Below, in pieces: positions 9,894-47,331 of a stretch of DNA of 64,000 nt. A program made the translations under genes and the position numbers. Source of the stretch: a virus (taxonomy: Duplodnaviria > Caudoviricetes); IMG/VR virus record IMGVR_UViG_3300028920_000023. The stretch is one strand, 5' to 3'. The notes under the pieces were generated by a model. It was not told where the DNA came from and did not search any database. It was given only the letters and a program-made list of their open reading frames with translations. Numbering within the stretch: the first letter of the stretch is position 1; every line of letters begins with the position of its first letter.

Positions 9894-9980
9894 ATGACAG
9901 CAAATCCGAAAAAGAGGCAGAAGGTGCAGAAGATAGCCAGCAGAGACCTCATTTTGGGCAAGCGTCTGCTGGACCTCTAG
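9894..9980 (+). CDS. small basic protein ending in RLLDL
   Basis: Short ORF, start uncertain; carries the C-terminal tag shared by six other ORFs. Confidence 0.45.
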   Translation: MTANPKKRQKVQKIASRDLILGKRLLDL

Positions 9981-10056
9981 AGAGGAGGATGTGGCTGAGT
10001 ACTGTGGTTTGATGCGGAGGCGGAAACGGTCGAACGAGAGGATACGGAGGAGCATT

Positions 10057-10386
10057 ATGCTTATTTGGGATAGCGAAAGTGAGAATGATCAACCTACACC
10101 GATCGAGGAAGATCGGTTTTACCGGTCTCTGGGTGAGGATAATGGCGTCTTAATTGTGGACAGTTGTGAGACGTCTGATTCACGAACGACGGTTTTGTTG
10201 TTTGTGGGTCCGAATTCCAAGGAGAATTGGACTAAGTGGAATGAGTTTGCCCGCCTCATCCGCCTCATTGCAGATGAGGAAGTCGTTACCGAATGGCCGG
10301 ATGAGGAGTTGGATCTGGACGATATAAGCAAGTGCCTCAAGAAGTGTTTTGACCCACCAACCCAACCATCTTGTGCGTGCACATGA
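10057..10386 (+). CDS. hypothetical protein (109 aa)
   Basis: GGAGGAG RBS. Confidence 0.65.
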   Translation: MLIWDSESENDQPTPIEEDRFYRSLGEDNGVLIVDSCETSDSRTTVLLFVGPNSKENWTKWNEFARLIRLIADEEVVTEWPDEELDLDDISKCLKKCFDPPTQPSCACT

Positions 10387-10439
10387 AACACGTTGCATTT
10401 GTCAAGCATTAAACTAATCCCAGGAAAGGAATTCGCGCC

Positions 10440-10610
10440 ATGAAAAAAGATATCAGGATTGGAATGCAGGTTAGTTGGTCCATTTGTCACGGAAAAAGGA
10501 TTTTGAAAGGCACCGTAGTCGGCGTGAACCTAGGACGTAAATGGGATATGCTTACCGTGAAATTGCCTAACGGTGTTCTTATCACGGTTCCGGACTACGA
10601 ATGCAGATAG
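10440..10610 (+). CDS. small KOW/SH3-like protein (56 aa, not in the ORF track)
   Basis: Manual translation MKKDIRIGMQVSWSICHGKRILKGTVVGVNLGRKWDMLTVKLPNGVLITVPDYECR; AAAGGA upstream. Confidence 0.6.
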   Translation: MKKDIRIGMQVSWSICHGKRILKGTVVGVNLGRKWDMLTVKLPNGVLITVPDYECR

Positions 10611-10647
10611 TTTCGCGCAACTAAATTCGGCAAAGGAAATAACCACC

Positions 10648-10791
10648 ATGGTTTCGATGACTGTCGTGCTGTTCTGCAATGGGACAGAGAAGAAAATTGG
10701 TCATCAGCTCGATGCGAAATCTCTACCTATCTTGAACAACTTGAGAAAGAACGCAAAGAACTGGCCTGAGGAAGCTCGGGTTATCTGGTGA
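10648..10791 (+). CDS. hypothetical protein (47 aa)
   Basis: AAAGGA RBS; stop lies inside the next repeat element. Confidence 0.5.
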   Translation: MVSMTVVLFCNGTEKKIGHQLDAKSLPILNNLRKNAKNWPEEARVIW

Positions 10792-10825
10792 GGCTGGCCG
10801 AAACAGAGAGATGTTCTTCTCTGTT
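10785..10825 (+). repeat. hammerhead-core-like element, type A variant
   Basis: CTGGTGA-GGC TG GCC-GAA-ACAGAGA...TCTCTGT-T. Confidence 0.8.
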
Positions 10826-11974: not shown

Positions 11975-13039
11975 ATGAACAACACACAACTACTAGAGAA
12001 GCTCAATAAAACCGGCAAACTAACCCAAAAACAAATGGAAAAACTAGCCAGACACATGACAAGGGCATCCAGGGAAAGGCAGCTAGAAGCCATAAGGCAA
12101 TGTGGATACGCTCTCTGCTTTATCGAAAACCCAACAGAAGAAATAGAACTAGAAGCCGTAAAACAAAACGGCTACGCTATCGACTATATCAAGAACCCAA
12201 CAGAAGAAGTACAACTAGAAGCCGTAAAACAAAACGGCGGAGCTGTCAAGTTTATTGACAACCCATCCGAGACTGTCCAGTTAGAGGCAGTAAAGCAAAA
12301 CGGAGAAGCCATCAGACGTATCGAAAGCCCATCCAAGGAAGTGCAGCTAGAAGCCGTAAAACAAAACGGATTCGCTATCCAGTATATCGATAACCCATCC
12401 AGAGAAGTCCAGCTAGAAGCCGTAAAACAAAATGGCTACGCTCTCCAACATATCACTATCCCATCTAGGGAAGTACAGCTAGCGGCAATAAAACAAGCCG
12501 GAGGTGCTATCCGATACCTTGAGAACCCAACAGAAGAAATACAACTAGAAGCAGTAAAGAAAGCTGGCACAACCATCAGACATATCAAAAACCCAACAGA
12601 AGAAATACAACTAGAAGCAGTAAAACAAAACGGCGGAGCTGTCAGGTTCATCAAGAACCCAACACAAGAAATACAACTAACAGCAGTAAAACAAACTGGA
12701 ATGGCCATCGAGCATATCGAAAACCCAACAGAAGAAATAAAACTAGCAGCCGTAAAACAAGACGGAAATGTTATCCGGTATATCGAAAACCCAACCAAAG
12801 AAGTACAGCTAGAAGCCGTAAAACAAAACTGCGCAGCAATCCGGCATATTAGGAGCCCCACAGGAGATCTGGAAGTATTATCCCTAATGCTCAGGCTTAA
12901 TGGCGATTACGACATGGCACACAGAACAGCCAAAACCCTATACGAAGACATGAGCAAAGACGACCGAGAAAAACTCAAGGACAGCCTAACCAGATCCAGA
13001 AGCGCATTGGCTGGCGGTGGCCGCACACTGGACATCTGA
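11975..13039 (+). CDS. DUF4116-like 24-aa repeat protein
   Basis: About 11 tandem NPTEEIQLEAVKQNGxAIxxIx repeats; ends RTLDI. Confidence 0.85.
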   Translation: MNNTQLLEKLNKTGKLTQKQMEKLARHMTRASRERQLEAIRQCGYALCFIENPTEEIELEAVKQNGYAIDYIKNPTEEVQLEAVKQNGGAVKFIDNPSETVQLEAVKQNGEAIRRIESPSKEVQLEAVKQNGFAIQYIDNPSREVQLEAVKQNGYALQHITIPSREVQLAAIKQAGGAIRYLENPTEEIQLEAVKKAGTTIRHIKNPTEEIQLEAVKQNGGAVRFIKNPTQEIQLTAVKQTGMAIEHIENPTEEIKLAAVKQDGNVIRYIENPTKEVQLEAVKQNCAAIRHIRSPTGDLEVLSLMLRLNGDYDMAHRTAKTLYEDMSKDDREKLKDSLTRSRSALAGGGRTLDI

Positions 13040-13094: not shown

Positions 13095-14456
13095 ATGAAC
13101 AACACACAACTACTAGAGAAGCTCAATAAAACCGGCAAACTAACCCAAAAACAAATGGAAAAACTAGCCAGATATGTAGTAAAGGAAGATAAGTACGGGT
13201 TAGTAAAGGTATGGAGTGAGGAATTCCAGCTGGCTGTAATTAACAGATCTGGTTATGTTATCCGATATATCGAGAACCCTTCTATGGAAGTACAATTGGC
13301 AGCCGTAAAACAAAACGGCTACGCTATCGAGCACATCGAGAACCCAACAGAAGAAATCCAACTAGAAGCTGTAAAACAAAACAGATCTGGTTATGTTATC
13401 CGATATATCGAGAACCCTTCTATGGAAGTACAATTGGCAGCCGTAAAACAAAACGGCTACGCTATCGAGCACATCAGGAACCCAACAGAAGAAATGAAAC
13501 TAGCAGCAGTAAAACAAAACGGACGAGCCATCAGGTACATCAAAAACCCAACAGAAGAAATGAAGCTAGCAGCCGTAAAACAAAACGGCTACGCTATCAA
13601 GTATATCAAGAACCCTTCTATGGAAGTACAATTGGCAGCAGTACGAGAAAACGGACTCACTATCAAGTACATCAAGAACCCAACAGAAGAAATCCAGATG
13701 GCAGCAGTAAAACAAGACGAAGAAGCCATCAAGCATATCAAGAACCCAACAGAAGAAGTACAGCTAGAAGCCGTAAAACAAGACGGAGAAGCCATCGAGT
13801 ATATCAAGAACCCAACAGAAGAAATGAAACTAACAGCAGTAAAACAAAACGGACGAGCCATCAGGTACATCAAAAACCCAACAGAAGAAGTGAAGCTAGA
13901 AGCCGTAAAACAAAACAGCTACGCTATCGACTATATCAAGAACCCAACAGAAGAAATGAAGCTAGCAGCCGTAAAACAAAACGGCTATGCTATCAAGCAT
14001 ATCGAGAACCCATCCATAGAAGTACAACTGGCAGCCGTAAAACAAGACGGAGAAGCCATCGGGTACATCAAAAACCCAACAGAAGAAATCCAGATGGCAG
14101 CCGTAAAGCAAGACGGCTACGCTATCGAGTACATCGAAAAACCAGCCAGAGAAGCACAACTAGCGGCCGTAAAACAAGCTGGCGAAATTATCAAGTATAT
14201 CAAGAACCCAACCAAAGAAGTACAACTAGAAGCCGTAAAACAAGACTGCATAGCAATCCGACACATAAAAGAACCATCCGAAGAAATAACAATCTTATCC
14301 CTAATGCTCAGGCTCAATGGCGATTACGACATAGTGCACAGAACAGCCAAAACCCTATACGAAGACATGAGTAAAAACGACCGAGAAAAACTCAGGGACA
14401 GTCTGATCAGATCCAGAAGTGTATTGGCTGGTGGTGGTCGCGCACTGGACATCTGA
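13095..14456 (+). CDS. DUF4116-like 24-aa repeat protein, paralog of 11975
   Basis: Same repeat; 95 nt (RBS + N-terminus) identical to the paralog; ends RALDI. Confidence 0.85.
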   Translation: MNNTQLLEKLNKTGKLTQKQMEKLARYVVKEDKYGLVKVWSEEFQLAVINRSGYVIRYIENPSMEVQLAAVKQNGYAIEHIENPTEEIQLEAVKQNRSGYVIRYIENPSMEVQLAAVKQNGYAIEHIRNPTEEMKLAAVKQNGRAIRYIKNPTEEMKLAAVKQNGYAIKYIKNPSMEVQLAAVRENGLTIKYIKNPTEEIQMAAVKQDEEAIKHIKNPTEEVQLEAVKQDGEAIEYIKNPTEEMKLTAVKQNGRAIRYIKNPTEEVKLEAVKQNSYAIDYIKNPTEEMKLAAVKQNGYAIKHIENPSIEVQLAAVKQDGEAIGYIKNPTEEIQMAAVKQDGYAIEYIEKPAREAQLAAVKQAGEIIKYIKNPTKEVQLEAVKQDCIAIRHIKEPSEEITILSLMLRLNGDYDIVHRTAKTLYEDMSKNDREKLRDSLIRSRSVLAGGGRALDI

Positions 14457-18114: not shown

Positions 18115-19359
18115 ATGCGTAAATATATGCTCGTATTTCTGTTAACACCATCTTTGCTCCTAGCCTCATCAAGGTTATGGGACGCCAAAGAAGAAGCCAA
18201 CATCGTAAGGAAAGATTACACAGGGAAAGAAGTCACGATAGCTGTCATCGGCACGCGAATAACCGATGACGGCACCAACTTTCAAAACAGAATAATACAC
18301 ACAGAACTGATAGCAGACACAGAAAGATCAGACCACGAAACCCATGTGGCATCAATCATAGCCAGCAACGGTGTCCATTACGGAATAGCCCCAGACTCCA
18401 AAATCATATCAGTCGTAATCTATGGAGATCCAAGCACAGAGAACATCCTGAAAGCCCTAAATTGGATCGCTGACAACAAAGAAAACTTTAGTATCGACAT
18501 AATAAACTTCAGTTCCGCATTCCGGGAAACCCCCTATGAGACCACCAAAAAACCCGGAATGTTATCCTTAACACTAGAAAGATTAAAAAAACTAGGCATC
18601 TTAATTATCTGTTCAAGCGGTAACAAACCAATCGACAGTATGGCTTACCCAGCATACGACCCGTCAGTGGTATCTGTGGCTGGGTACGACAAAGGAAACA
18701 CCATCTCCTCGTTCAGTTATAGTTCGATTTTCGCACCCGGCAACATCCTAGCAGCAAGCCACGAAGCCCCCTGGTCAGCCATCCGAAGAGACGGCTCATC
18801 TATGGCCGCTCCCGTAGTCACAGGAGCTTGCGCAAGATACATCGAAGCATATCGCAAGAACTACGGAACAACACCAAGCCCAGACAAAGTACAAAACATA
18901 ATCTTCGCGACAGCAAGAAGCGAATTCCTAAATGATGGCAAACTGCTCAGAAGGCTGCTCGATGCAGACAAGATGCTAGCCGAATTCCCAACATCGAACT
19001 ACGGAGAACTAACAGTACACACATCAAGATCCCGCACGAAAATCAGAAGAGCATCTATAATGCTCAAAGCAAGATACGAAGGCGAATTGACACTCCCTTT
19101 CACACTGGAATCCGGCCACTTCAGATACCGAGTAACTTCCTGGGAACAGAAAAAACCTGTTAAACTCAGAAAAACCAAAAGAACCATCAGACTCAAAATA
19201 AGGTGGCCCGAAGCATTCGTGTGGAAAAATCTGATCGGACAATCCGTCAAAATAATCCTCGATAAAGAAGTGAGGACATCACGCAAAGATGACCGCCACA
19301 ATACGAGCAGAAAGGAGGACGACCGGTGCAAACAACCGAAGAAATACAGGAGACAATAG
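18115..19359 (+). CDS. subtilisin-like (S8) protease homolog with signal peptide
   Basis: HETHVAS, SSGN and GSSMAAPVVTG motifs; hydrophobic N-terminus; the catalytic Asp position reads AVIGT. Confidence 0.85.
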   Translation: MRKYMLVFLLTPSLLLASSRLWDAKEEANIVRKDYTGKEVTIAVIGTRITDDGTNFQNRIIHTELIADTERSDHETHVASIIASNGVHYGIAPDSKIISVVIYGDPSTENILKALNWIADNKENFSIDIINFSSAFRETPYETTKKPGMLSLTLERLKKLGILIICSSGNKPIDSMAYPAYDPSVVSVAGYDKGNTISSFSYSSIFAPGNILAASHEAPWSAIRRDGSSMAAPVVTGACARYIEAYRKNYGTTPSPDKVQNIIFATARSEFLNDGKLLRRLLDADKMLAEFPTSNYGELTVHTSRSRTKIRRASIMLKARYEGELTLPFTLESGHFRYRVTSWEQKKPVKLRKTKRTIRLKIRWPEAFVWKNLIGQSVKIILDKEVRTSRKDDRHNTSRKEDDRCKQPKKYRRQ

Positions 19360-20761: not shown

Positions 20762-21121
20762 ATGAGTCACAAAGTTTCGATGAAAGTCAAGATGGAAGAC
20801 CGAGACTGCCTCAAAACAGTCTGTGAACGACTTGGGGTCTCCTACCAAGAAGGAAAGCACAGCGTGCGTTTCTATTCGCAGACCGTGAATACCGAGTTCA
20901 GCTTCCAACTCGAAGGATGGAAATACCCCTGCGCACTGACCGAAGAAGGGGTCGAATTCGACAACTACAACGGATCCTGGGGCAAACCCCAACAACTACA
21001 CAAATTCAATCAAGAATACTGCAAGGAAGTAGCCGAGCAAGAACTCAATGCCCAGGGGATGTACCTCCAGGAAACAGAAGTCGAAGCCGACGGAAGCCTG
21101 ACCCTAATCTACGAAGGCTAG
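20762..21121 (+). CDS. DUF1257 (Ycf35-like) protein
   Basis: MSHxVxMKVKMxDxxCL..CERLG start; F..EY.K..A...L...G pattern. Confidence 0.75.
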   Translation: MSHKVSMKVKMEDRDCLKTVCERLGVSYQEGKHSVRFYSQTVNTEFSFQLEGWKYPCALTEEGVEFDNYNGSWGKPQQLHKFNQEYCKEVAEQELNAQGMYLQETEVEADGSLTLIYEG

Positions 21122-21531: not shown

Positions 21532-22196
21532 ACATCCAAGAACTGAAGACCAAAGGATGGGTCAGCATAGACGGAAGAGACCAACTATTCGCAAACCGAC
21601 AGCGCATCGCCCACATGGCCCGTAGCCTCGGAAAGAAATACTGGACATGCGTTATACGCGAGACACTTTACGGCGGTATAGGCAACAAAGAAGAACAACT
21701 CGGAGAGATCTACAAAGAAATCTCCTTCAGAGAAAAACTATCCGGAATCAAAAGCTTCCTCAAGACAATATCTGACATAGGATCAAAATACCACAAATTC
21801 AACAAAAAACACTTCAAATACTGCTCAGTGGATGAACTATTGTATAAACAAGGAAAAGCATTCAAACCAGGGAAATTACCACAAACAATAACCCTACAAA
21901 AACCAAGAGAATGCTTTAAGAATTGTCTATTGCTTGCCTCGGCCATGCCTCAATACAGATACGCCGAGGGTTACGCTATGAATCAGATTCCCCTCGCCCA
22001 CGCTTGGCTGGTGGACAAGGAGGGTCTGGCCATAGACCCAACATGGCCAGAACCGAGCGAAGCTTATTTTGGTATCACAATAGACACGGAGTACGCAGTC
22101 TCGGCCTCTCTTAAGAGAGGTAAGGCCGGATGTTTGGATGATCCGGAAAATGCTTGGCCACTCTTGCGCCATGGTGTTTCTGTTATCAACGTCTGA
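21528..22196 (+). CDS. hypothetical protein with possible Cys-His-Asp (transglutaminase/papain-like) triad
   Basis: ECFKN...EGYA...HAW...IDPTW. Confidence 0.7.
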   Translation: MNIQELKTKGWVSIDGRDQLFANRQRIAHMARSLGKKYWTCVIRETLYGGIGNKEEQLGEIYKEISFREKLSGIKSFLKTISDIGSKYHKFNKKHFKYCSVDELLYKQGKAFKPGKLPQTITLQKPRECFKNCLLLASAMPQYRYAEGYAMNQIPLAHAWLVDKEGLAIDPTWPEPSEAYFGITIDTEYAVSASLKRGKAGCLDDPENAWPLLRHGVSVINV

Positions 22197-22359
22197 TACC
22201 TCCGATCTTTCCTTAAAGTCAATCCGAAGTTCCACGCACAGCGAGCAGCAGGGTCGTCGTGGCAAGATACGCGCCACGACACGCGCATACGGGGAGGATG
22301 CGTCCCCACGCACTTGGGCATTGCGCCCAAAGCGATACACCCTAAGAAAGGAGACACAC

Positions 22360-23562
22360 ATGCATATTTCGCAGTTGAAAGAGGCTATTCTGTTATGCCG
22401 AGAAGCCGGAATCACACCCTGGGTCTGGGGCCACAGAGGACTAGGCAAAAGCAGCCTGGTCAAACAAATCGCCCAATCATACGGAATCGGCTTCCGAGAC
22501 TTCCGTTGCAGCCAAATCGAACACAGCGACCTGCGCGGCCTACCAGACCGCAGCGAGGGAGTAACGAAATACTTCCCACCAGACGAACTCCCCAGGGAGA
22601 TCGACAAAGACGAAGCACTACGCAGACTCGGGGCACAGCACAAAAACCCCCCGGACGAGGAGATAGCCGAACAAGCTAGGAAGATGGTCAGGGAAAACAA
22701 CAACGGCATCATCCTGCTTGATGAGCTGAACCGAGCAGAAGATGACGTGATCCAGGCCAGCTTCCAGCTCGTGCTCGACCGCAGAATCGGAAACTATGAA
22801 CTCCCAGACGGCTGGAGTGTGGTGGTCGCAGGCAATTACCCAGAGGGATACACCACAAACAACTTCGACGACCCAGCCTTTTTGGATCGTTTCTGTCACC
22901 TGGAGCTCACAATCGGTGACGAATACATCGCCGAGTGGGCGTCATATATGCGGAATTACGGCTCCTCGGCCAGGATCATGCAGTTCATCGGTTCGAACAC
23001 GAACCACCTCTGCGGCGATGTCAAAGGCAACCTCAACTTCACAATACAACCCAGCCCGAGAAGCTGGGAAATGCTGGCCAAAGTCGAAGAACACTCCGGT
23101 GACCACAGCCCAGAGGTCGTGCACCAGGTGCGTGTGGGGCTCATCGGAGCTGCCCTTGCACAGCATTATAAGCAATTCTCGTGTAAGGTCGATCCCAAGG
23201 ACGTTATCAACAACGGAACAGGGCAACTCCAGAAGCATAATCTGGACCGAACAGAGACTCAGGGTCTGATGTTCGGCATCCTGAGCCACCTGTCAAATTC
23301 CAAAATCTCACCAAAACAGCGCAACAACGTCCTCGATTTCATGCGCCATCTGGCGAAGAACAAAGAGAGGGATCTGGCTGCGGTGTTCGGCATCCAGCTC
23401 ATCCGGGACGAGGTTAAGGACCAAAGCGCCGTCGGTGCAGTCTTATCAAATCCGAACGTAGCAAAGCTCCTGGCCAGCGGAAAGAAATCTGGCTGGGTAC
23501 CCGCAATCGTGGCTGACAAGGAGTTGACCGCGCTAGTAAGCAAAGCAGCCTGGGGGCAATAA
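22360..23562 (+). CDS. MoxR-type AAA+ ATPase
   Basis: GHRGLGKS Walker A; DLRGLP; ILLDELNRA Walker B; AGN; DPAFLDRF. Confidence 0.9.
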   Translation: MHISQLKEAILLCREAGITPWVWGHRGLGKSSLVKQIAQSYGIGFRDFRCSQIEHSDLRGLPDRSEGVTKYFPPDELPREIDKDEALRRLGAQHKNPPDEEIAEQARKMVRENNNGIILLDELNRAEDDVIQASFQLVLDRRIGNYELPDGWSVVVAGNYPEGYTTNNFDDPAFLDRFCHLELTIGDEYIAEWASYMRNYGSSARIMQFIGSNTNHLCGDVKGNLNFTIQPSPRSWEMLAKVEEHSGDHSPEVVHQVRVGLIGAALAQHYKQFSCKVDPKDVINNGTGQLQKHNLDRTETQGLMFGILSHLSNSKISPKQRNNVLDFMRHLAKNKERDLAAVFGIQLIRDEVKDQSAVGAVLSNPNVAKLLASGKKSGWVPAIVADKELTALVSKAAWGQ

Positions 23563-23563
23563 A

Positions 23564-24886
23564 ATGACAAAAGAGCTTACACATGATCTGCTCATGGGGG
23601 CAAGGGGGAGGCTTCTAGCTCGCTTCCCCTGGTATGGGATCTTCGCATCCCAGATGCTCTTCAAAGAGAGCAAACATTTACCGGCCCCAATGGGCGTAAA
23701 CATCGGCCATAAGGGAATCAACTGCTACTGGAATCCAGAACTGCTGGATCAATACAATATAGACCAGATTATCTGTATCATCCAGCACGAAATCGATCAC
23801 GTAGTCCGTCTTCACTGCGTCCGGTCCTACACCAGACAGAGAACGGCCTGGAACATCGCAGCAGACGCTATCGTGAACGGCAGAAAGAACAGACCGAACA
23901 TCACCGGAAGGAAAAACAAGGACGGCCTTCCCGAAAATTGTATCTGGTATGAGCACGAAGAGGATAACCTCACCACAGAGGAATATTACAAGTGGCTGAA
24001 GGAAACACTCGTTTTCTGCCCCTGTTGTGGTGATCCGGTAGGCCGAAAGAACCAGAACCAAGACGGCCAAGGAGGAGGAGGAGGAGGAGGAGGAGGACAG
24101 GACGGCCAAGAAGCCCAGGACGGCCAAGGAGGAGGACAGGACGGCCAAGAAGACCAGGACGGCCAAGGAGGAGGACAGGACGGCCAAGGGTGCCCGGTCT
24201 GTGGCTCCGGCAGAAGCCCATCCTCTGATGGCAGCAGATTGACCGACGACCACGACTGCTGGGGCGGCACGACAGTCAGCGAGGACCAAGCCAGACAGAT
24301 GGTCGCCACGGCTGCAACAAACTCCTCAAATCAAGCCGGATACACTCCGGGGCATCTTGTGCAAGCCATCGGAGAGTTATTAGAGAGCAAAGTCAACTGG
24401 CAAGCCTTGCTCAGGAAAATCATCGGTCGGAAATGCGGAGCAAAACGCAAGACCTACAGCCGCACCAACCGAAGAACAAAAGCATTCGGAACCAGGGGCG
24501 TCAGTACGCACGGCAGCGACCTACTGGTCGTAGCTGTGGACACTTCAGGCTCCGTAGATGATAAAATGCTGCACCAATTCTTCAGCGAGGTTGAGGCAGT
24601 ATCTCAGCGCTTCAGGATTATGTTGGTGCAGTTTGATCACGAAATACAGTCCGTGGGCACATACCGGAAAGGCGACTGGAAGAAGATTAAAGCCCATGGC
24701 CGTGGGGGCACCTGCTTCATTAACCTCTTCGAGGGTCTAGAGGAACGTAACCTCGTGGGCAAGTTCCATATCGTCTTGACGGATGGCGAAGCTTGTTTCG
24801 GGGACGAGCGTCCCTACCCAGTGCTTTGGGCGATCGATGGAGGTGTGGTCCCCCCATGGGGCCAATACATCAAGGTTGAACCATGA
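23564..24886 (+). CDS. DUF2201-type metallopeptidase + vWA domain protein
   Basis: HEIDH (HEXXH); Gly/Gln/Asp linker; VDTSGS MIDAS; TDG. Confidence 0.9.
   Translation: MTKELTHDLLMGARGRLLARFPWYGIFASQMLFKESKHLPAPMGVNIGHKGINCYWNPELLDQYNIDQIICIIQHEIDHVVRLHCVRSYTRQRTAWNIAADAIVNGRKNRPNITGRKNKDGLPENCIWYEHEEDNLTTEEYYKWLKETLVFCPCCGDPVGRKNQNQDGQGGGGGGGGGQDGQEAQDGQGGGQDGQEDQDGQGGGQDGQGCPVCGSGRSPSSDGSRLTDDHDCWGGTTVSEDQARQMVATAATNSSNQAGYTPGHLVQAIGELLESKVNWQALLRKIIGRKCGAKRKTYSRTNRRTKAFGTRGVSTHGSDLLVVAVDTSGSVDDKMLHQFFSEVEAVSQRFRIMLVQFDHEIQSVGTYRKGDWKKIKAHGRGGTCFINLFEGLEERNLVGKFHIVLTDGEACFGDERPYPVLWAIDGGVVPPWGQYIKVEP
24061..24190 (+). repeat. in-frame tandem repeats encoding a GQ/GG/QD linker
   Basis: Repeated CAGGACGGCCAAG(G/A)AG units and a GGA run. 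Confidence 0.9.
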
Positions 24887-30422: not shown

Positions 30423-30427
30423 CGCCG

Positions 30428-31665: not shown

Positions 31666-31857
31666 ATGGCCAAAATAATCGTCAAGATCAATAAAGAAGG
31701 AACCAAGACAACCGCCAAAGTGGAGGGAGTCTACGGAAGCGGTTGTCAGGACCTGACCAAAGCCCTAGAGGATCGACTGGGCATGGTCGAAGAGGATCAA
31801 GAAACAGAAGATATGTACCTCGACCAAGCGACCGAAACACAAGAATTAGGTCTGTGA
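31666..31857 (+). CDS. DUF2997-like protein
   Basis: IIVKI..G.....VEG..G..C..LT..LE..LG. Confidence 0.75.
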   Translation: MAKIIVKINKEGTKTTAKVEGVYGSGCQDLTKALEDRLGMVEEDQETEDMYLDQATETQELGL

Positions 31858-33029: not shown

Positions 33030-33734
33030 ATGCTCGTAAGAATCACCAACCAATGCAACATGCAATGCGGACACTGCATGGTAGAAGCAACACCACAAGG
33101 CAAACACATGACAGAAGAAACATTCATACAAACCCTCCTCTTCATCCAGAAAGGACCAACCCCAATAGTCCTGATCAGCGGCGGAGAACCAACACAACAC
33201 CCGCAGATAACAGAATTTCTAGAACAGACCAAAAAAGCACAACTAACACCACTACTATTAAGCAACGGTCAATTCCTACACCAAAACCCAGAACTAAGAG
33301 AAAAAATACTGTCCCTAGTACACAGCGTACAGGTAACAAACGACCCGAGATACTACCCAGAACACGTGCCAGACTACGACCACCCAAAAGTCACAATCGT
33401 AAGAAAACTGCTCCAGCTATCACCACACGGCAGACAAAAAGGAAAACCAACAAACCGAACAGCACCAGAATGCTACAACCTTAGGACGTTAATAAAACAC
33501 GGATACAGCTTCGACCAAGCCAAAATCACCCTGATGTCCAAAATGAAATTCTGCACCCCAAGCATAAACATCAACGGAACAATCGTAGCCGGAGAAGCAC
33601 CCTCCTGCGCCGCCATAGGGCACATAACAGACGACCCCACCACCATAACGAAAAATGTGCGGGAATTGGATTGTGATAATTGCGGGCTTTCTAAGAATCT
33701 TCCTGAAGAATTGCGCAAGGCTGGTGGTTATTGA
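33030..33734 (+). CDS. radical SAM protein with C-terminal Cys-rich (Twitch/SPASM-like) part
   Basis: CNMQCGHC (CxxxCxxC); SGGEPT; further cysteines. Confidence 0.9.
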   Translation: MLVRITNQCNMQCGHCMVEATPQGKHMTEETFIQTLLFIQKGPTPIVLISGGEPTQHPQITEFLEQTKKAQLTPLLLSNGQFLHQNPELREKILSLVHSVQVTNDPRYYPEHVPDYDHPKVTIVRKLLQLSPHGRQKGKPTNRTAPECYNLRTLIKHGYSFDQAKITLMSKMKFCTPSININGTIVAGEAPSCAAIGHITDDPTTITKNVRELDCDNCGLSKNLPEELRKAGGY

Positions 33735-34873: not shown

Positions 34874-34961
34874 CCCGTCGCTTGCAGACGAGCAAGCGGA
34901 CGCGCCTCCCGGACGGGCACGGTATGCCGGTACCGGCACCGGCGCACTCGGTCGTCATCAA
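34874..34961 (-). repeat. GC-rich leader element (family C), copy 2
   Basis: CCCGTCGCTTGCAGACGAGCAAGCGGACG...; palindrome TGCCGGTACCGGCA. Confidence 0.85.
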
Positions 34962-35851
34962 GACGGCGTAGTAAAATTATTCGAGCCAAGCCAATTCGGA
35001 TCAAGATACGGAGTAACATAACCGATCAGGCCAATGCCATACTTCGCAGCAACCGATCTCCTATATTCAAGATCGGAGAATTGGAACATCTTCTTCGGTT
35101 CCTGAACCAATCGGCCATCATGCACCACAACATTCCCGGATTTCGGAGAGCCAAGCTCCTTCAACATATCAAGATTACCGGGGCTAACATCGTCCCTACC
35201 ATCAGTCGAATCGCGACGATCCAAAGGCATAGCAGCTCCACACTTCGTGCAAAAACATTCCATCTGCTCTACATAATCCTTGGGAGTGCGTTTCCACCAG
35301 CCGGGTTCTATCGGCCACCCCCTAACACCCATTAGAGCGCCAAAAGCGGCCGCTACTTCACAAAAATAAGCACCATTCGGTGTGATAGACGCACTCCAAG
35401 TATTCTGAACCCAACAATGATCTATCCAATACCACATTAGGTCCTTATCTTTGGCAACCTCGTCGGAGGCTACCAAAAGAGGAGCATGCATGATACCAGG
35501 TTTACTATGGTCATTCAGATAGATCGCGTTAAAGGTCTGGACGATAATCTCTCTGTAATGTTCTTTTCCTTTGGGGAGGGTGGTCCAGAGACCCATCCTA
35601 GATCGGTCCACCTTAGATCGTATATGCTCGCATATTTCTCCGAATTTGGGATGAAGGAGTGGTTCTCCTCCGGTTATCCCTATTCTGTTTGGTGCTTCTA
35701 TGACGCTATCTAGCGCATCTGCGAATTGATCTAGGTCCATCACGAATGGATGTTTGTGATGCCCGACTAGCCTCGTGCAGTTTGAACACCTATACAAGCA
35801 ATTGTTCGTTATTTCGATCTGGATGATATCCAGATCCGCTATACATTTCAT
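34958..35851 (-). CDS. radical SAM protein
   Basis: ITNNCLYRCSNC; GITGGEPLLHP. Confidence 0.9.
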   Translation of the reverse strand: MKCIADLDIIQIEITNNCLYRCSNCTRLVGHHKHPFVMDLDQFADALDSVIEAPNRIGITGGEPLLHPKFGEICEHIRSKVDRSRMGLWTTLPKGKEHYREIIVQTFNAIYLNDHSKPGIMHAPLLVASDEVAKDKDLMWYWIDHCWVQNTWSASITPNGAYFCEVAAAFGALMGVRGWPIEPGWWKRTPKDYVEQMECFCTKCGAAMPLDRRDSTDGRDDVSPGNLDMLKELGSPKSGNVVVHDGRLVQEPKKMFQFSDLEYRRSVAAKYGIGLIGYVTPYLDPNWLGSNNFTTPS

Positions 35852-40774: not shown

Positions 40775-41236
40775 TCACGACTCAAAAAGAAGCTCAACAG
40801 AACCATCCTCCGAGACCTCCTCCGAATCAAAAACAAAACCCTGTTCCTCAAGCTGATCAATAGCAACCTGCTTAGAATACTCACGCATCAACTTATTGCA
40901 ATCCTTCTCACCATCCCCAATGTGACCCATCAAACCAAAACCACCATTATAAAAATCATAGATAACCCGAAAACCACCCTCCCCATCATCAACAAGACCA
41001 ACCTCATAAGCACCAGAAACACCCCTAACCCTCAACACATGATCACACTTACCATACTGACTAGGATCAACACCATCACGATACGCAGCATCCTCAGCAT
41101 GATAATCATTCACCCACTTACCAAACCACCTATACGTCTTTTGGCCACGGACAAGCTCCAAACCAAGCCTGTCCGCAGCACGCTCCAAACAATCCAAATC
41201 AGTCACACGAACCTTCATCGTAACAACATGACTCAT
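40775..41236 (-). CDS. DUF1257 (Ycf35-like) protein, second copy
   Basis: MSHVVTMKVRVTDLDCL..AA.RLG; Y...VA...L...GF. Confidence 0.8.
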   Translation of the reverse strand: MSHVVTMKVRVTDLDCLERAADRLGLELVRGQKTYRWFGKWVNDYHAEDAAYRDGVDPSQYGKCDHVLRVRGVSGAYEVGLVDDGEGGFRVIYDFYNGGFGLMGHIGDGEKDCNKLMREYSKQVAIDQLEEQGFVFDSEEVSEDGSVELLFES

Positions 41237-41487
41237 TCAGTCACCTCCTTAGGATCGCCAAGCGTAGCACCATCATCCAGAAAGCTCTCGGGAATTGCGA
41301 ACCTGACACCACTTAGGTGTTCTCTCATATTCTTCTCGGTCTCTTCCTTGTCCTTGACTCCACAAGCATAGCAGATATAAGCTCCGTTGCGCCCATATGG
41401 GCGCAACTCCGCAATTTTGCCGCAATAATCACACTGTTGCGGCTTTTCTCTCCCAATCACAAAAACGTCCCCAATCCTCTTGCTCAT
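41233..41487 (-). CDS. small zinc-finger protein
   Basis: CDYCG...ELRPYG..G..IC..C. Confidence 0.7.
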   Translation of the reverse strand: MSKRIGDVFVIGREKPQQCDYCGKIAELRPYGRNGAYICYACGVKDKEETEKNMREHLSGVRFAIPESFLDDGATLGDPKEVTE

Positions 41488-43454
41488 ATCATCCCCCAAA
41501 AATCAGACTCACTAATAATCTCCACACCAAGCTTCCTAGCCTTCTTAGTCTTAGACGACTCCTTAGAAGGATCAGCCTGGACAAGGAAATCAACCCCAGA
41601 AGCAACCTTATCAGACGTGGTTCCACCATTCCGCACAACCACATCCCACATCATCTTCCGAGTAAAACGCTTCCCATCCTCACCCACCTTCTCAATAGCA
41701 CCCGTAAACACAAAACACTTACCAGCAAGAGAACCACCAGAAACAACCGGTGCCTCAGGAGACTCCTCCTCCACAATCCGAACACCAGCATCCAAAAGAC
41801 CCTGATAAAGACCACGGCCAATAACACCACAAATACCCTCACAAACCGCAGTAGCCTTACGCTCACTGAAACCCTCTAAAGCAGAAAGCCTCTCCGGATC
41901 CAACGACAACATATCAACCTGCCCAATACCCTGAGAAATCATAATCTCCATCTGACGACGACCCAAGAACTGGATACCAAGCGAACCCCAAAACTCCTGA
42001 AGGGAGCAAGACTTAGACTTCTCCAATTCGGCCATAATCCTCTTAGCATTAGAACCAACCACACCATTCCCACGAGGGATCGCAGCCAAAACATCCTCAG
42101 TCAAACCATACAGATCAGCCGGAGTCCTAATACCATAATTGTCATACAAGGTCTCCAACAACGTATCACCAATATGCAAAATATTCCTCTTGGTGATCCA
42201 CGTCTTAAGAAGACGAAACTGCTTACCCTCACAGGAATCAGACATACACTTGATATGCGCCCCATCCTTCACTAGCTCAGAAAAGCAAACAGGGCAATTC
42301 GTAGGAGTAAAAATCTGCTCCCTATCCGCAGCTTCATTCGCCACACCAATAACCTTCGGAATAACATCACCAGAACGGATGACCTTGACCTCGTCCCCAA
42401 CAGCCACCCTCAGGCGCTCGATCTCCTCAAAATTGTTCAGAAGAGCACTCGTAACCGTAACTCCCCCAATATGCACAGGAGCCAAATCCGCAGTAGGAAT
42501 AATCGCCCCAGTATGCCCAACCGTAAGCTTAACACCAAGAAGCTTCGTAGTCGCCTCCATAGCCTTAAACTTAAACGCAATACCACCCTTCGGACGATTA
42601 TCGCGAACACCAAGATCCGAAAAAACATCAGAATCATTAAAAAACACAACAAGACCATCAATCTCAACATCCAAACCAGCCCTATCAGAAGCAACCTGCT
42701 GGTGAGTAGCATAGACATCATCCACAGTATGGTGGAGAACAAACCATACCACCTCAAAACCAAGCGATTGAAGAAAAACCAACTTCTCAGAATGAGAAAC
42801 GAATTCATCATCCCCAATCACATCAAACGCGATAAACGAAATACACTGCGCACGATCGCCATCACTCCTTCTGACCGTGCCATTCGCCGCATTCCTCGCG
42901 TTCGCAGCATCACCAAAATGCTTCTCAAAATCCTCCTTAAGAAGAATAGCCTCACCACGAACATGAAGATCCGAACGAATAGGAATCCTCACAGGAACAT
43001 TCTTGAACTTTCGGGCATTTCGCGTAATATCCTCACCGAAATGGCCATCACCACGAGTTATAGCCTGGACCAAAATCCCATCCTTATAAATAAGCTCTAC
43101 CGAAGAACCATCGAGCTTATGCATAACCAACAGCTCAGCCATTTCAGATTCAATACCAACATCCTTAATCCGCCTAGCATGCCACTCCCTGAACGAAGGC
43201 GTGGCATTATCCCCATCTCTTGAGCAATTATTCAAACTGCCCATAGGGATCTTATGTTCAGCCTTCGTCAGGTGATCAGCTACCGGAGCGCCCACAGACG
43301 ACAAAATGGGATGATCCGGACACTTCTCACGAACGTAATCCTTAAGCTCATCATACTCGGCATCAGACATGATACTACTGCCGGTATTGTAATAAGCTCT
43401 GTCAGCTTCCATGAGCTTAGACGTAACTTCCTTAAGTTGGTCTTTCATCGACAT
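41484..43454 (-). CDS. ligA: NAD-dependent DNA ligase
   Basis: SDAEYD; KLDG adenylation Lys; TRGDG..GEDIT; EVRGE-like HVRGE; DGLV; AFKF; OB fold; Zn finger; HhH; C-terminal BRCT. Confidence 0.95.
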   Translation of the reverse strand: MSMKDQLKEVTSKLMEADRAYYNTGSSIMSDAEYDELKDYVREKCPDHPILSSVGAPVADHLTKAEHKIPMGSLNNCSRDGDNATPSFREWHARRIKDVGIESEMAELLVMHKLDGSSVELIYKDGILVQAITRGDGHFGEDITRNARKFKNVPVRIPIRSDLHVRGEAILLKEDFEKHFGDAANARNAANGTVRRSDGDRAQCISFIAFDVIGDDEFVSHSEKLVFLQSLGFEVVWFVLHHTVDDVYATHQQVASDRAGLDVEIDGLVVFFNDSDVFSDLGVRDNRPKGGIAFKFKAMEATTKLLGVKLTVGHTGAIIPTADLAPVHIGGVTVTSALLNNFEEIERLRVAVGDEVKVIRSGDVIPKVIGVANEAADREQIFTPTNCPVCFSELVKDGAHIKCMSDSCEGKQFRLLKTWITKRNILHIGDTLLETLYDNYGIRTPADLYGLTEDVLAAIPRGNGVVGSNAKRIMAELEKSKSCSLQEFWGSLGIQFLGRRQMEIMISQGIGQVDMLSLDPERLSALEGFSERKATAVCEGICGVIGRGLYQGLLDAGVRIVEEESPEAPVVSGGSLAGKCFVFTGAIEKVGEDGKRFTRKMMWDVVVRNGGTTSDKVASGVDFLVQADPSKESSKTKKARKLGVEIISESDFWGMI

Positions 43455-43461
43455 AACTCCT

Positions 43462-44244
43462 TTAGAGATCCAAGATTCGCGAACCGATCGAAGCAAAAGC
43501 ACCCACAACCTGCCTACTGACAGAAGATTTACCCATCTTCTTTTCGACTTCCTCTACCAAATCATCACTTTTCTTCTCATCAAAATCCAAAATCCGCTTC
43601 GGATGCTGAATATTCACAGCCGAAACCCTATTAGGTCCGGAATCCAGATCGAGAACACGAGCACTCTTCGCAAAAGTATCGATCGCAATGACCTGGCGAA
43701 CGGACTCAGCCAATCTCTTAACAAAATTACGCACACCAGCAGCAAAACCCGAACTGGTCTGATAAGAGGAAGAGAAACCGAGATCAGAATCGAGATCAGA
43801 CAACGTCCTAGTCTCATTCTTGGATAAAACAAGATGAGTTCTTTCTCTAGTCCAAGAATTCATTATCTCCACATAGATATGATCTGTGGGATTATAACCA
43901 GGAAGCTCAACAAGCCTATTATCCTCAAGACGTACAAACAAAGTCCGCACAATCTTGTTCTGATGGCCGATATCATCAGCCGTCTGCTTCTCCTCCTTAT
44001 ATTGCTTATCGTCTACAAGCTGATACCTCTTCCCAGCTTTGTCTTTCGTCTTATCTGCAATTTTCTTCTGTATAAAGCGCGCAGCAGCATCATGAGTACC
44101 GAATCTCTTGGTCTGTTCAGAAATATTAGAACCAATTCTGCCCCATTTAATCTCGACAGTCGTATCGTCTATGAACTTGTAACTCCACAGCTTATTGCTG
44201 TTAGAGTCCTTGCTGATGTACCGAATCTCTTTCCCTATATCCAT
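43462..44244 (-). CDS. WGR-domain protein with three RxLD(L/F) motifs
   Basis: KLWSY...IKWGRIG; ends RILDL. Confidence 0.8.
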   Translation of the reverse strand: MDIGKEIRYISKDSNSNKLWSYKFIDDTTVEIKWGRIGSNISEQTKRFGTHDAAARFIQKKIADKTKDKAGKRYQLVDDKQYKEEKQTADDIGHQNKIVRTLFVRLEDNRLVELPGYNPTDHIYVEIMNSWTRERTHLVLSKNETRTLSDLDSDLGFSSSYQTSSGFAAGVRNFVKRLAESVRQVIAIDTFAKSARVLDLDSGPNRVSAVNIQHPKRILDFDEKKSDDLVEEVEKKMGKSSVSRQVVGAFASIGSRILDL

Positions 44245-44268
44245 TTGCTACCTCCTACTCGGGGTTAA

Positions 44269-44307
44269 TTCAGCAGAGATTACCTCTGCTGATTCGGAAC
44301 TCCTCAG
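44269..44307 (-). repeat. hammerhead-core-like element, type B
   Basis: CTGAGGA-G TTC C-GAA-TCAGCAGAG gtaat CTCTGCTGA-A; its TGA is the upstream stop. Confidence 0.85.
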
Positions 44308-45227
44308 TCTAAATCAAGCTTCCTGCCATGACCCAAGATACTCTCGCGGGCCTTGTCCAAACTGGACCTGAGATCATCAACACCCCCTGCAATCAGGTGC
44401 TCATAAGAGCCAATACGGGCTTTGATCTTGGCGATCTCCTCTAGCTTATTCTTGAGCCATTTATCACCAACATCTTTATTCCCGGAAGTGACTTCCGAGA
44501 TCTTCTTCTCCAAGTTCTCCAAAGAGGACTGGAATTCCGTAGAAGCTGCATTGCCTACAACTTCCTGAGCGTGGGCCACATTCGGCATCGGGAAGAAAGA
44601 CAGATAATTGCCCCCACCCAAAGTGCCCAAGAATTCGGCCAAATTCCGCACAGTCTGCTCGTAAGCAGCAGGCACGAAATACACACAGCCTTGATCCCGC
44701 AAGGACACGATATCCGCGTTCTCTCGAAGAATCGATTTGATATATCGCGTCACATCAGAAGAAGAATACGTAACTTTCTGAGCACCAAATTCCTCAACGA
44801 CCCGATCTTTGATCTCGGAAACCGAGCAAGTGACAGCAGCCGAGAAATCCTTCGTCTCACGATAACGCTGCTTATCCACCAAGAAACTGGCTTCCCGACT
44901 ATAAGACAACTCCGCCTCAGCGCCAGTACCGTTCTTCAGTTCCGCTGTGAACTGATAATTCATAAAGCGATCATCCTCATCTGCCAAACGGATAATACGC
45001 TGTTCCTCCATAGCACGAAGAGAACGAGTAAGGGCACTCCTATAATTGTGTTCCCGAGCGTATTTCTCATCAAAACCACAACTCACAAGAGCCTGTTTGA
45101 ACTCCTCTTGGGTGATGTTCACGTTCCGGACATTCCACCAGATCATATAACCAAGGATCTGGAAGTCTTGATCACCCTCAACGAACTGACCCATCAAAAG
45201 ATTCTGAGCTACTTGCGTTTCTGTCAT
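44304..45227 (-). CDS. hypothetical protein, DUF6744/DUF3150-like
   Basis: GYMIWW..., coiled-coil C-terminus, ends RKLDLD; family assignment from memory. Confidence 0.75.
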   Translation of the reverse strand: MTETQVAQNLLMGQFVEGDQDFQILGYMIWWNVRNVNITQEEFKQALVSCGFDEKYAREHNYRSALTRSLRAMEEQRIIRLADEDDRFMNYQFTAELKNGTGAEAELSYSREASFLVDKQRYRETKDFSAAVTCSVSEIKDRVVEEFGAQKVTYSSSDVTRYIKSILRENADIVSLRDQGCVYFVPAAYEQTVRNLAEFLGTLGGGNYLSFFPMPNVAHAQEVVGNAASTEFQSSLENLEKKISEVTSGNKDVGDKWLKNKLEEIAKIKARIGSYEHLIAGGVDDLRSSLDKARESILGHGRKLDLD

Positions 45228-45264
45228 AAATCCTCCTTTGGCTAGAAGCCGAACCTGAAAATCC

Positions 45265-45615
45265 CTATTTGATCACGCTATTGGGCGGAGAAACCGGCAA
45301 ATGCTCGGGATGTCTTTTTGCCAAATCCCTCAGAGCATCAGAAACCATCTGGTTAAAATACCCAGAATTGGCAACGAAATCATAGGAGGAGATATACGAG
45401 CAATTGCCCAGATAAGACGTCTCCTCATCAACGACCCTGTTACGGTCCTTAAGCTGAGCAGTAACCGTGGCTGTACACCAGCCCCACCCGCCCTTAGCGA
45501 TTTTCATCACCTTGCGGACTGCTTCAGCATAACCTTCACAGGAACTTGTTCTTCTCTCGGATTGCTCCGGAGTCTCATGTTCCTTCACATTGTCGACTAC
45601 GATCACAAGTTTCAT
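45265..45615 (-). CDS. hypothetical protein (116 aa)
   Basis: AAAGGAG RBS. Confidence 0.7.
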   Translation of the reverse strand: MKLVIVVDNVKEHETPEQSERRTSSCEGYAEAVRKVMKIAKGGWGWCTATVTAQLKDRNRVVDEETSYLGNCSYISSYDFVANSGYFNQMVSDALRDLAKRHPEHLPVSPPNSVIK

Positions 45616-45634
45616 GGCTTCTCCTTTGGTCAAT

Positions 45635-45675
45635 AGGAGGGCAAGGACTTCTTGCCCTCCTTCCCAAATCGTCCG
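45635..45675 (-). repeat. degenerate hammerhead-core-like element, G-C closing variant
   Basis: CGGACGA-T TTG G-GAA-GGAGGGCAAG aagtc CTTGCCCTCC-T, directly after the AAA stop. Confidence 0.55.
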
Positions 45676-47331
45676 CTACAGATCCAAAATCCGAGCGTAA
45701 TTCCTAGCCACTGTCTTCTTGACAGTCGATGCTGGGACTGCATGGGTCTTAGCCCATTCAGCCATTTTCTTGAGATTATCGGCTTGGGACTTACTCAGGG
45801 GCGTCGTGTTCTGCACCGCGTGCATAATGTGCAAAACATCCAGATCCACATCCTTTCCGGACTCGATCTTCTGATTATAGGCGGAAAGCAAAGCAGACTT
45901 AACAGCCTCCTCGATCTCCGAACCAGAGAAACCTTTAGTCGAGGAAACCAGTTCTTTCCACCCAGTGGGGTCTTTCTTCTTGAGTACCTCGGGGTCACGC
46001 CCCTTCTTCCTGATATGGATCTCCAAGATCTCCTCACGCGCCGCATCATCCGGCTGATCCACGAAGAAGATCTCATCGAACCGACCCTTTCGGGTAAGCT
46101 CAGGGGGAAGACCTTCAATGTTATTGACCGTAGCGATGATGAAGGAACTGCCGCTACGCTCCTGCATCCAGGTCAGCAACGTACCAAACACCCTCTGAGA
46201 GACGCCAGAATCACCAGAACTCTGGCCGACACCACCAAGCACCTTCTCGACCTCATCCAGCCAAACCACCGAGTCGCCAATAGCGTCGATAGTGCTCAGC
46301 GCATTCCGCATATTGTCCTCAGATGCCCCCACAAGACCCTGGAATACCTTGGCAATATCGAATCGGACCAAAGGAACCTGCATCTCCGTTGCTGCAGCCT
46401 TTGCCGACAAGCTCTTTCCACAGCCCGGAAGACCCACAAGGACAATACCTTTGGGTTTGTCCACGCCAAAAGCTGCAGCCTCTTTACTGTAGCAGAGCCT
46501 CCGACGATTGAGCCAAGCCTTAAGGACATCCAAACCACCAATATCCCGGGACAACTGCTTGATATCCCAGAATTCCAAGATACCAGACTTCTTGATAGTC
46601 TTGGCTTTCTCCTTCATAACCAGCTCAGCGATGGTCGGAACCGCCTCCTGGTCATCCGTTTTAGCCTCCTTCAGCTCCTTCAGCAGAGTGGACCGGACGA
46701 TCGCCGCCTTGGCAAAGGCATTGGACGCCTCCATCAGAGTCAAACCAACCGCAGCCTCACCAATCTTGTCATGATCGTCTTCCTTTAGATCAGAGAAACT
46801 ATCGGGCTGCTGATTGTAGATCTCCTCCTTCCACTGGGTTTTGAGCTGCTCCTGTCGGGGAAGGCTATATTCCACCAAATGCAGATCACGTTCGATCTCC
46901 GGCGGGATTTTGCGCACTGGACTAACGAGAATCAGCGAATGCTTCACACTCTTGAAGCACCTCGAGATATCCCGTAGCAACCGCAGAACCACCGGGTTAT
47001 TGAAGTGCAGATGAAGATCACGGAAGATGAAAAGCTTGCGCTTCACATCCATGTTCTTGTCGACGACAACATTCTTTGCCTCGGAATAGATCTTCCCGAG
47101 AGCATTCGCAGCCAGCATCGTCTGTTTTGCTTGCTTGTCCGAGATCCAGTCGGTGACTTTGTCTACTGGATGAAGACCCTCTGAGCAACTCCAGACCTGG
47201 AATTGTTCGCCCGTGAGGTTGTAGTAACTGGCGATTTCATGACATGCCAGTTCTGCTCGGAACTCCTCGAGGCAGTGCAGATAGATGACGGGAAATCCAG
47301 CCCGTACGTAGGGTATAAGCGATGACGACAT
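45676..47331 (-). CDS. Ycf46-like AAA+ ATPase
   Basis: FIFRDLH; GGLDVLK.WL; GLPGCGKS; VVWLDEVEK; LPPEL.RKGRFDE.FFVD; ends RILDL. Confidence 0.9.
   Translation of the reverse strand: MSSSLIPYVRAGFPVIYLHCLEEFRAELACHEIASYYNLTGEQFQVWSCSEGLHPVDKVTDWISDKQAKQTMLAANALGKIYSEAKNVVVDKNMDVKRKLFIFRDLHLHFNNPVVLRLLRDISRCFKSVKHSLILVSPVRKIPPEIERDLHLVEYSLPRQEQLKTQWKEEIYNQQPDSFSDLKEDDHDKIGEAAVGLTLMEASNAFAKAAIVRSTLLKELKEAKTDDQEAVPTIAELVMKEKAKTIKKSGILEFWDIKQLSRDIGGLDVLKAWLNRRRLCYSKEAAAFGVDKPKGIVLVGLPGCGKSLSAKAAATEMQVPLVRFDIAKVFQGLVGASEDNMRNALSTIDAIGDSVVWLDEVEKVLGGVGQSSGDSGVSQRVFGTLLTWMQERSGSSFIIATVNNIEGLPPELTRKGRFDEIFFVDQPDDAAREEILEIHIRKKGRDPEVLKKKDPTGWKELVSSTKGFSGSEIEEAVKSALLSAYNQKIESGKDVDLDVLHIMHAVQNTTPLSKSQADNLKKMAEWAKTHAVPASTVKKTVARNYARILDL

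Follow-up and report, generated by a model that had tools for sequence, protein, structure and literature searches.

Short C-terminal peptides as known and proposed addresses of shared machines

The hub-binding C-terminal peptide is an established principle, represented by the HbYX/GQYL tails, the sliding-clamp motifs and the motifs that bind p97. The HbYX/GQYL tails of Rpt/PAN, archaeal Cdc48, PA200/Blm10 and the mycobacterial Mpa, Bpa and Cpa dock into the same receptor-ring pockets, and the ATP-independent PA200 and Bpa use an ATPase-type tail for these pockets. p97/Cdc48 gathers unrelated adaptors on its N domain through the SHP, VIM and VBM motifs, and the C-terminal tail of p97 is bound by PUB and PUL domains. 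Sliding clamps are contacted through the bacterial peptide QL[SD]LF or, in the case of T4 gp45, through the tails of gp43, gp33 and gp55. Here we analyze a C-terminal tail, R-x-L-D-[LI], that is shared by a Ycf46-like AAA+ ATPase and several unrelated proteins encoded on a stretch of 64,000 nucleotides of virus DNA (Duplodnaviria; Caudoviricetes; IMG/VR record IMGVR_UViG_3300028920_000023), hereafter called the window. The motif departs from each of the three known types in its defining features.

The likeness to the HbYX/GQYL tails is that a Cdc48-type AAA+ protein and unrelated non-ATPases share one short C-terminal peptide on a flexible tail. The window tails differ in that they end in L-D-[LI] and have no penultimate tyrosine, that the proteins proposed as receptor (DUF1257/DUF2997) are small, and that there are many more kinds of tail-bearing proteins; no gene for a 20S proteasome or HslV-type protease turned up among the window open reading frames (ORFs) scanned with Pfam. 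VAT, Cdc48 and p97 are the nearest solved relatives of the window ATPase, and p97/Cdc48 likewise combines short linear motifs with its own C-terminal tail as a binding site. The cofactor motifs of p97, however, are unlike the p97 tail, whereas in the Ycf46 module the partners copy the tail of the ATPase itself. The same ATPase, DUF1257 and DUF2997 families as in the phage module occur in cyanobacteria and plastids as ycf46, ycf35 (DUF1257) and DUF2997. Literature searches on Ycf46, DUF1257, DUF2997, DUF6744 and WGR proteins with AAA+ ATPases returned no functional description, with ycf46, ycf35, DUF1257 and DUF2997 appearing as gene-content mentions only, and no paper describing the tail motif was found.

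Unrelated window proteins share a C-terminal tail

Within the 64-kb window, to which all tag counts for this phage refer, six ORFs end in the strict motif R-x-L-D-[LI] and a seventh ends in RKLDLD, with an extra aspartate:

9687-9980, plus strand: doubtful ORF of 28-97 amino acids depending on the choice of start; tail GKRLLDL
11975-13039, plus strand: DUF4116 repeat protein, 354 amino acids; tail GGGRTLDI; Pfam DUF4116, E = 2e-48
13095-14456, plus strand: DUF4116 repeat paralog, 453 amino acids; tail GGGRALDI; Pfam DUF4116, E = 5e-48
29424-29711, plus strand: small protein, 95 amino acids; tail SRILDL, RILDL codons at 29694-29708
43462-44244, minus strand: WGR-domain protein, 260 amino acids; Pfam WGR; terminal SRILDL codons at 43465-43479
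44304-45227, minus strand: DUF6744 protein, 307 amino acids; tail GRKLDLD; Pfam DUF6744, E = 2e-20
45676-47331, minus strand: Ycf46-like AAA+ ATPase, 551 amino acids; tail ARILDL, RILDL codons at 45679-45693; Pfam AAA and AAA_lid_3

All seven endings had been listed in an earlier note on this DNA, and all were confirmed in the sequence; the ORF ending in RLLDL, which fits R-x-L-D-L exactly and is counted among the six strict tails, spans 9687-9980. The note had regarded the ending as a short linear motif on unrelated bodies, and the Pfam assignments support this: the bodies belong to DUF4116 (two genes), WGR, DUF6744 and AAA with AAA_lid_3, while two ORFs have no family. Its further claim that the motif is conserved at the protein level is borne out by the codons. 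Arginine is encoded by CGC, CGT, CGA, CGG or AGG, leucine by CTG, TTG or CTT and aspartate by GAC or GAT, all three stop codons are used, and the tails of the two DUF4116 paralogs differ by both synonymous and non-synonymous changes. Because codons and stop codons vary among the tagged genes, selection acts on the protein and not on a DNA repeat. An origin of the tag as a by-product of a DNA repeat or of an RNA motif at gene ends was rejected on the same grounds, and three of the tagged genes lie on the opposite strand.

The earlier note had proposed to count the endings against a null; we compared the frequency of the motif at C-termini with its frequency elsewhere, using 105 non-overlapping window ORFs of at least 60 amino acids each. 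Five of the 105 end in R.LD[LI], whereas the internal rate (three occurrences at 18,617 positions) predicts 0.017 such ends, so that the motif lies above the null with a Poisson P = 1e-11, or 3e-9 if the DUF4116 paralogs are counted as one; a pure composition null gives 0.006 expected ends. The WGR protein contains two extra internal copies, also seen earlier and confirmed here, RVLDLD (amino acid 196, 43642-43659) and RILDFD (amino acid 217, 43579-43596). In both of these, and at the end of the DUF6744 protein (RKLDLD), an aspartate directly follows the motif.

The gene models behind the tails are of different quality. The ATPase starts with an ATG at 47331 in a reading frame that is open to 47394, and the public gene call (P0001) is also 551 amino acids long. 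Public assemblies include the 95-amino-acid ORF at 29424-29711 among their called genes; its product had no match in Pfam, PADLOC or NCBIfam and no homolog in five related phage records. The coding status of the ORF at 9687-9980 is doubtful, because the surrounding sequence is atypical and rich in G+T, neither a convincing ribosome-binding site nor a clear start could be made out, and the ORF is not called in the public protein collection. Two further DUF4116-like proteins of the window, at 30359-31621 (plus strand) and 55530-56810 (minus strand), have no tail, which leaves two of the four family members tagged.

The tail is a signature of the Ycf46-like AAA+ family

The window ATPase has 7,181 homologs at E <= 1e-20. 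Among the best 120 of these, the tail R.[LIVM][DE][LIVMF] stands at the exact end in 48 and at most three residues from the end in 68, and 94 have it in a looser form. The consensus ending of the family is S-A-G-R-Q-L-[DE]-[ILF], and the tail arginine, R547, is invariant in an alignment of 47 sequences (A1). Judged by these alignments, G-R-x-L-[DE]-hydrophobic is a conserved C-terminal motif of the whole Ycf46-like AAA+ family. This family ranges over Verrucomicrobiota, Armatimonadota, Myxococcota, Melainabacteria, Actinomycetota, Bacillota, several archaeal assemblies and the cyanobacteria, whose Ycf46 has the related ending YQRMEF and DUF1257 alongside. The earlier note had read the tail as a targeting code peculiar to the phage; we find instead a family-wide C-terminal signature of Ycf46-like AAA+ ATPases and their partner families in bacteria, archaea and phages.

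According to Pfam the ATPase has one active AAA domain followed by AAA_lid_3. Its AlphaFold2 model (predicted local distance difference test score, pLDDT, 89.7) has a degenerate N-terminal alpha/beta domain (residues 1-220) and then a Cdc48/VAT-like AAA domain. The tail is disordered in this monomer model (last 12 residues; region 540-550), as would be expected for a docking peptide. We also asked whether the N-terminal domain could be a reader specific for the tail. Tail-less relatives conserve the invariant residues of this domain (E22, E23, W47, D105 and R117) equally well, so that these lend the idea no specific support. PADLOC and NCBIfam reported generic AAA similarity alone for the ATPase (IetA, TRIP13, CDC48), far under the cut-offs; they had no match for the DUF1257, DUF2997, WGR, DUF6744 or 95-amino-acid proteins and no model of the module.

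Variants of the ATPase were seen as well. One subgroup (L003, L110, L117, L140, L142, L156, L158 and L164) ends in Y-N-N-P-F-I and has kept its DUF1257/DUF2997 neighbours, none of which copies that ending. Some homologs, including L018 / G006:116999-120103, are about 800-1,030 amino acids long and retain the tail. Three of them, P0070, P0077 and P0082, are annotated in the collection with Pfam intein or homing-endonuclease families, and inteins are probably inserted in their genes.

Partner families copy the tail of the ATPase

In the window, the WGR and DUF6744 genes that adjoin the ATPase gene copy its tail. Homologs of the WGR protein were collected by a full HMMER search, since a word-based search gave one relative only. 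In this WGR subfamily of about 240 amino acids, 78 of 117 full-length homologs end in KFAALG-x-R-x-L-[DE]-L and 39 of the 117 have at least two copies of the motif. For DUF6744, R-x-[LI]-[DE]-hydrophobic is found at most three residues from the end in 40 of 69 homologs and at the exact end in 33. An unrelated contig of 531 kb (L089) has the gene order AAA (GRQLDL), DUF1257, DUF2997, a 195-amino-acid protein (ARKLELD), an 87-amino-acid protein and WGR (ARVLEL), and the same three families, AAA+, WGR and DUF6744, bear the tail there as in the window.

A comparable pattern was found at 80 bacterial and archaeal loci. The strict tail occurs on 20 of 384 neighbours beside tail-bearing AAA+ genes but on 2 of 639 beside tail-less ones, with an internal rate of 5e-4 per position. 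HHH_3 (ComEA-like) proteins that start with a membrane helix make up most of the tailed cellular neighbours, and at one locus seven such proteins are encoded consecutively; the others are WGR, DUF3150 and a rhomboid-like protein. The tail of the HhH proteins stands on the positively charged side of the membrane helix, which by the positive-inside rule is presumably cytoplasmic.

Related huge phages tag many more proteins

The closest IMG/VR relative, G006 (247 kb), encodes about six tagged proteins. In G001, a more distant huge phage of 351 kb, 35-36 of the 495 ORFs end in [NSD]-R-F-[ED]-I-L-D-[LI]. These ORFs fall into about 30 unrelated body clusters, their codons and stop codons vary, and the proteins are mostly small (median 117 amino acids) and have no assigned function. 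One of them, the DUF4116 protein at L077:16685-17800, is related to the window protein at 11975-13039 (E = 4e-77) and ends in NRFEILDL. The AAA+ protein of G001 retains the canonical ending K-D-L-D-L.

The tail is kept by orthologs at 43-80% identity in five huge phages, and the motif is thus conserved among orthologs while the protein bodies diverge. Together with the AAA+, WGR and DUF6744 homologs this answers, in the affirmative, the question of tail conservation in orthologs that the earlier note had posed. The tag is thus uniform within one genome and differs between lineages. G001 (L076) also has a second type of tail, acidic with aromatic residues (DDFEFD, DDEFDFD, DDWESNF), at 103538-105145, 118745-119056 and 120339-121043, which may be a separate tag.

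DUF1257 and DUF2997 accompany tail-bearing ATPases

Genes for DUF1257 and DUF2997 proteins accompany the window ATPase; they are scattered over about 25 kb and are not adjacent to each other. They and the other companions of the module are:

20762-21121, plus strand: DUF1257 paralog, 119 amino acids, no tail; Pfam DUF1257, found by a local hidden Markov model
31666-31857, plus strand: DUF2997 protein, 63 amino acids, no tail; Pfam DUF2997, E = 2e-11
32594-32854, plus strand: RASHVEP protein, 86 amino acids, no tail; homolog of the 87-amino-acid gene product of L089, E = 1.5e-21
33030-33734, plus strand: radical-SAM enzyme, 234 amino acids; Pfam Radical_SAM and Fer4_12; adjoins the DUF2997 and RASHVEP genes
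34958-35851, minus strand: second radical-SAM gene; like the product of 33030-33734, its product has CxxxCxxC near the N-terminus, and the two genes flank the DUF2997/RASHVEP group
40775-41236, minus strand: DUF1257 (Ycf35-like) protein, 153 amino acids, no tail; Pfam DUF1257; AlphaFold2 pLDDT 88
41484-43508, minus strand: complete NAD-dependent DNA ligase with adenylation, OB, HhH and BRCT domains, no tail; between the WGR and DUF1257 genes

Among the cellular loci with enough flanking sequence, DUF1257 and/or DUF2997 lie at most 10 kb away from 27 of 28 tail-bearing AAA+ genes but from only 5 of 22 tail-less ones, counts that are uncorrected for shared ancestry. DUF2997 is present in G001, G002 and G006, and a purpose-built profile detected DUF1257 in G001 and G006. 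The other companions are less constant. The RASHVEP protein accompanies the WGR-type form of the module, and of about 155 loci only 8 were found to have it. Proteins with CxxxCxxC occur in 17 of the 28 tail-bearing cellular loci and are frequent, not universal, companions; in many cellular loci an activase-like CxxxCxxC gene for about 200 amino acids overlaps the end of a tailed HHH_3 gene just before the AAA+ gene.

Structure searches gave no functional clue to the DUF1257 fold as modeled. Foldseek with the model against the PDB returned nothing at E <= 0.001, a wide VIA-align search had a best Z of 3.8, the AlphaFold DB clusters returned solely other DUF1257 entries, and a sequence profile search of the PDB gave nothing below E = 0.1. 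An AlphaFold DB entry of 228 amino acids named DUF2997 aligned weakly to the DUF1257 model (E 0.26), which hints at occasional fusion of the two domains. A predicted complex of the AAA+ protein (residues 1-535), DUF1257, DUF2997 and the WGR protein (residues 185-260) scored 0.01 (mark 0.32), which is neutral on binding. In an alignment of DUF1257 proteins from many phyla (A2) we observed a nearly invariant Met-Ser-His start, with Ser2 invariant in 38 sequences, which points to a functional N-terminus.

A putative docking peptide of an AAA+/DUF1257/DUF2997 machine

By analogy with the docking tails of known machines, we think it somewhat more probable than improbable that R-x-L-[DE]-hydrophobic is a docking peptide, presented on a flexible tail, for one common site of a single AAA+/DUF1257/DUF2997 machine. 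The flexible C-terminal tails of the ATPase hexamer, behind the active ring, would dock at one receptor site in the machine, and adaptors or clients with the same tail would join the ATPase at this site or compete for it. DNA-binding or membrane-anchored partners could be recruited through their copied tail. By adding the tail to DUF4116 repeat proteins and to small ORFs, the window phage would have enrolled extra clients, and the related huge phages would have done likewise on a much larger scale. The aspartate that follows the motif in RVLDLD, RILDFD and RKLDLD would suit a reader for which the final hydrophobic residue must be followed by a negative charge.

Three considerations shape this proposal. 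The presence of the tail on the ATPase favours a common docking site over a simple substrate tag for the AAA+ pore. That partners copy the ATPase's own tail points to either a third-party site or tail mimicry. Finally, since bacteria, archaea and phages all have this one tail, its reader probably travels with the module and is not a host-specific hub. The earlier note had envisaged a single hub protein and named the AAA+ ring or its DUF1257/DUF2997 partners, a host protease or adaptor, and a packaging or export apparatus. The tie to the AAA+, DUF1257 and DUF2997 genes held up, whereas packaging, export and a host protease found no support. Our best candidate for the reader is the DUF1257-DUF2997 unit, a choice that we make tentatively. 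A site on the ATPase ring itself comes second, and we are doubtful of it.

Several observations weigh against a common docking site for all these tails. The huge-phage version of the tag has its arginine at -7, compared with -5 in the canonical tail, and may have a different reader. The association of the tail with DUF1257/DUF2997 is uncorrected for shared ancestry, and the tail-less ATPases may simply form a separate subfamily. In the complete phages G007 and G008 the AAA+ protein is tailed and is the sole tagged protein, and no DUF1257 or DUF2997 was detectable; an ATPase can thus have the tail in the absence of this pair, provided that the host does not contribute it. Four cyanobacterial genomes were checked, and in these the RMEF end is found on Ycf46 alone and on no further protein, so that a multi-client role is not universal.

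A more ambitious version of the docking proposal would make the Ycf46-like ATPase, DUF1257 and DUF2997 a protein-processing machine, comparable to an unfoldase on a receptor chamber, with a universal C-terminal address by which huge phages would route dozens of proteins (36 in G001). We regard this as improbable as it stands. If true, it would offer a mechanism for ycf46 and ycf35, which are orphan genes of cyanobacteria and plastids. In either form, the analysis ties a tag on unrelated phage proteins to a specific and widespread machine, with more than 7,000 ATPase homologs across bacterial phyla, archaea, cyanobacteria and phages. The question of what reads the address label is narrowed to DUF1257, DUF2997 and the ATPase ring as candidates, the function of ycf46/ycf35 becomes directly testable, and the tail provides a simple sequence rule for listing partners of the machine in any genome.

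Alternative readings of the tail

The alternative that fares best takes the tail as a degron or substrate tag, with the AAA+ protein or a host protease (ClpXP, FtsH, Tsp) unfolding the tagged proteins for their timed removal. Many bacterial proteins have C-terminal degrons, the sequence of the ATPase marks it as an unfoldase of the Cdc48/VAT type, and the small size of the G001 tagged proteins and their lack of an assigned function would suit such a role. The ATPase, however, bears the tail on all of its own subunits, and the conserved partners WGR-240 and DUF6744 bear it across phyla. Every tail has an aspartate or glutamate at -2, unlike ssrA-type degrons of ClpX, FtsH and Tsp, in which the last three residues are non-polar as in LAA-type endings. 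The tail is also identical in archaea and bacteria, which does not fit a host-specific protease. We consider a degron unlikely, and more so than any of the readings above.

It is less likely still that the tail is a recognition or modification site of the module's radical-SAM enzyme, that is, a tag for post-translational modification. The overlap of the activase-like gene with the tailed HHH_3 gene in many cellular loci, and the two window genes beside DUF2997 and RASHVEP, would agree with this. Yet the enzyme is found in only 17 of the 28 tail-bearing cellular loci, and the ATPases of L089, L092, L093 and the cyanobacterial ycf46 genes keep the tail with no such enzyme nearby. Moreover, no residue of the tail appears to fit a known radical-SAM target motif.

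We assign about as little likelihood, or slightly less, to the view that the tail is a variant of QL[SD]LF and attaches its carriers to the DNA sliding clamp or another general hub of host or phage. Clamp peptides are likewise short, often C-terminal and carried by unrelated hub-binding proteins, and the AAA+ consensus G-R-Q-L-D-[LIF] resembles Q-L-[SD]-L-F, just as G-R-Q-L-D-L is superficially like Q-L-D-L-F. Many tailed partners have DNA-binding domains (HHH_3, WGR), and the window module is interleaved with the gene for the NAD-dependent DNA ligase. The residue that is invariant, however, is the arginine at -5 and not a glutamine. Glutamine at position 1 of the clamp motif is common in the ATPase family only (47 of 72), and the window tails have I, T, A, K or L there. 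The terminal aromatic pair and the motif's second hydrophobic or aromatic residue are missing, the carriers are not replication enzymes, and the window ligase has no tail. Finally, archaeal contigs have the tail in the same form as bacteria, and the archaeal clamp, PCNA, goes with a motif of another kind. No clamp gene is present in the window.

The window also encodes a conflict-system-type gene pair reminiscent of vWA-MoxR systems with C-terminally tagged small proteins:

22138-24886, plus strand: MoxR-like AAA ATPase (474 amino acids) followed directly by a DUF2201_N/DUF2201 protein, a putative metallopeptidase with a VWA-like domain

Its presence is what speaks for this pair as the reader of the tail, but the pair is not found wherever the tag is: no homolog of the DUF2201 protein was found in the tag-rich G001, G002 or G006, none was seen in the cellular loci with partner tails, and we disfavour this reading strongly. 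A signal for virion packaging or export, for which there is the general precedent of targeting peptides and nothing further, is just as implausible, given that free-living bacteria, archaea and cyanobacteria, which have no virion, conserve the tail on an ATPase of the cytoplasm, and that the HhH-protein tails lie on the presumed cytoplasmic side of the membrane helix.

Other features of the window

No GenBank phage had a DNA match to the window; in the public protein collection, the genes of the window belong to a contig of 354,787 bp. From position 1 to 9700 the plus strand is strongly rich in G+T, with a GC skew that reaches 0.48, and convincing ORFs are few; the ORF at 9687-9980 lies at the edge of this region. 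A subtilase gene (Peptidase_S8; 18115-19359, plus strand, 414 amino acids) shares a plus-strand block with the tagged DUF4116 genes, and a tRNA-Arg gene (anticodon TCT) is located at 60332-60409 on the plus strand.

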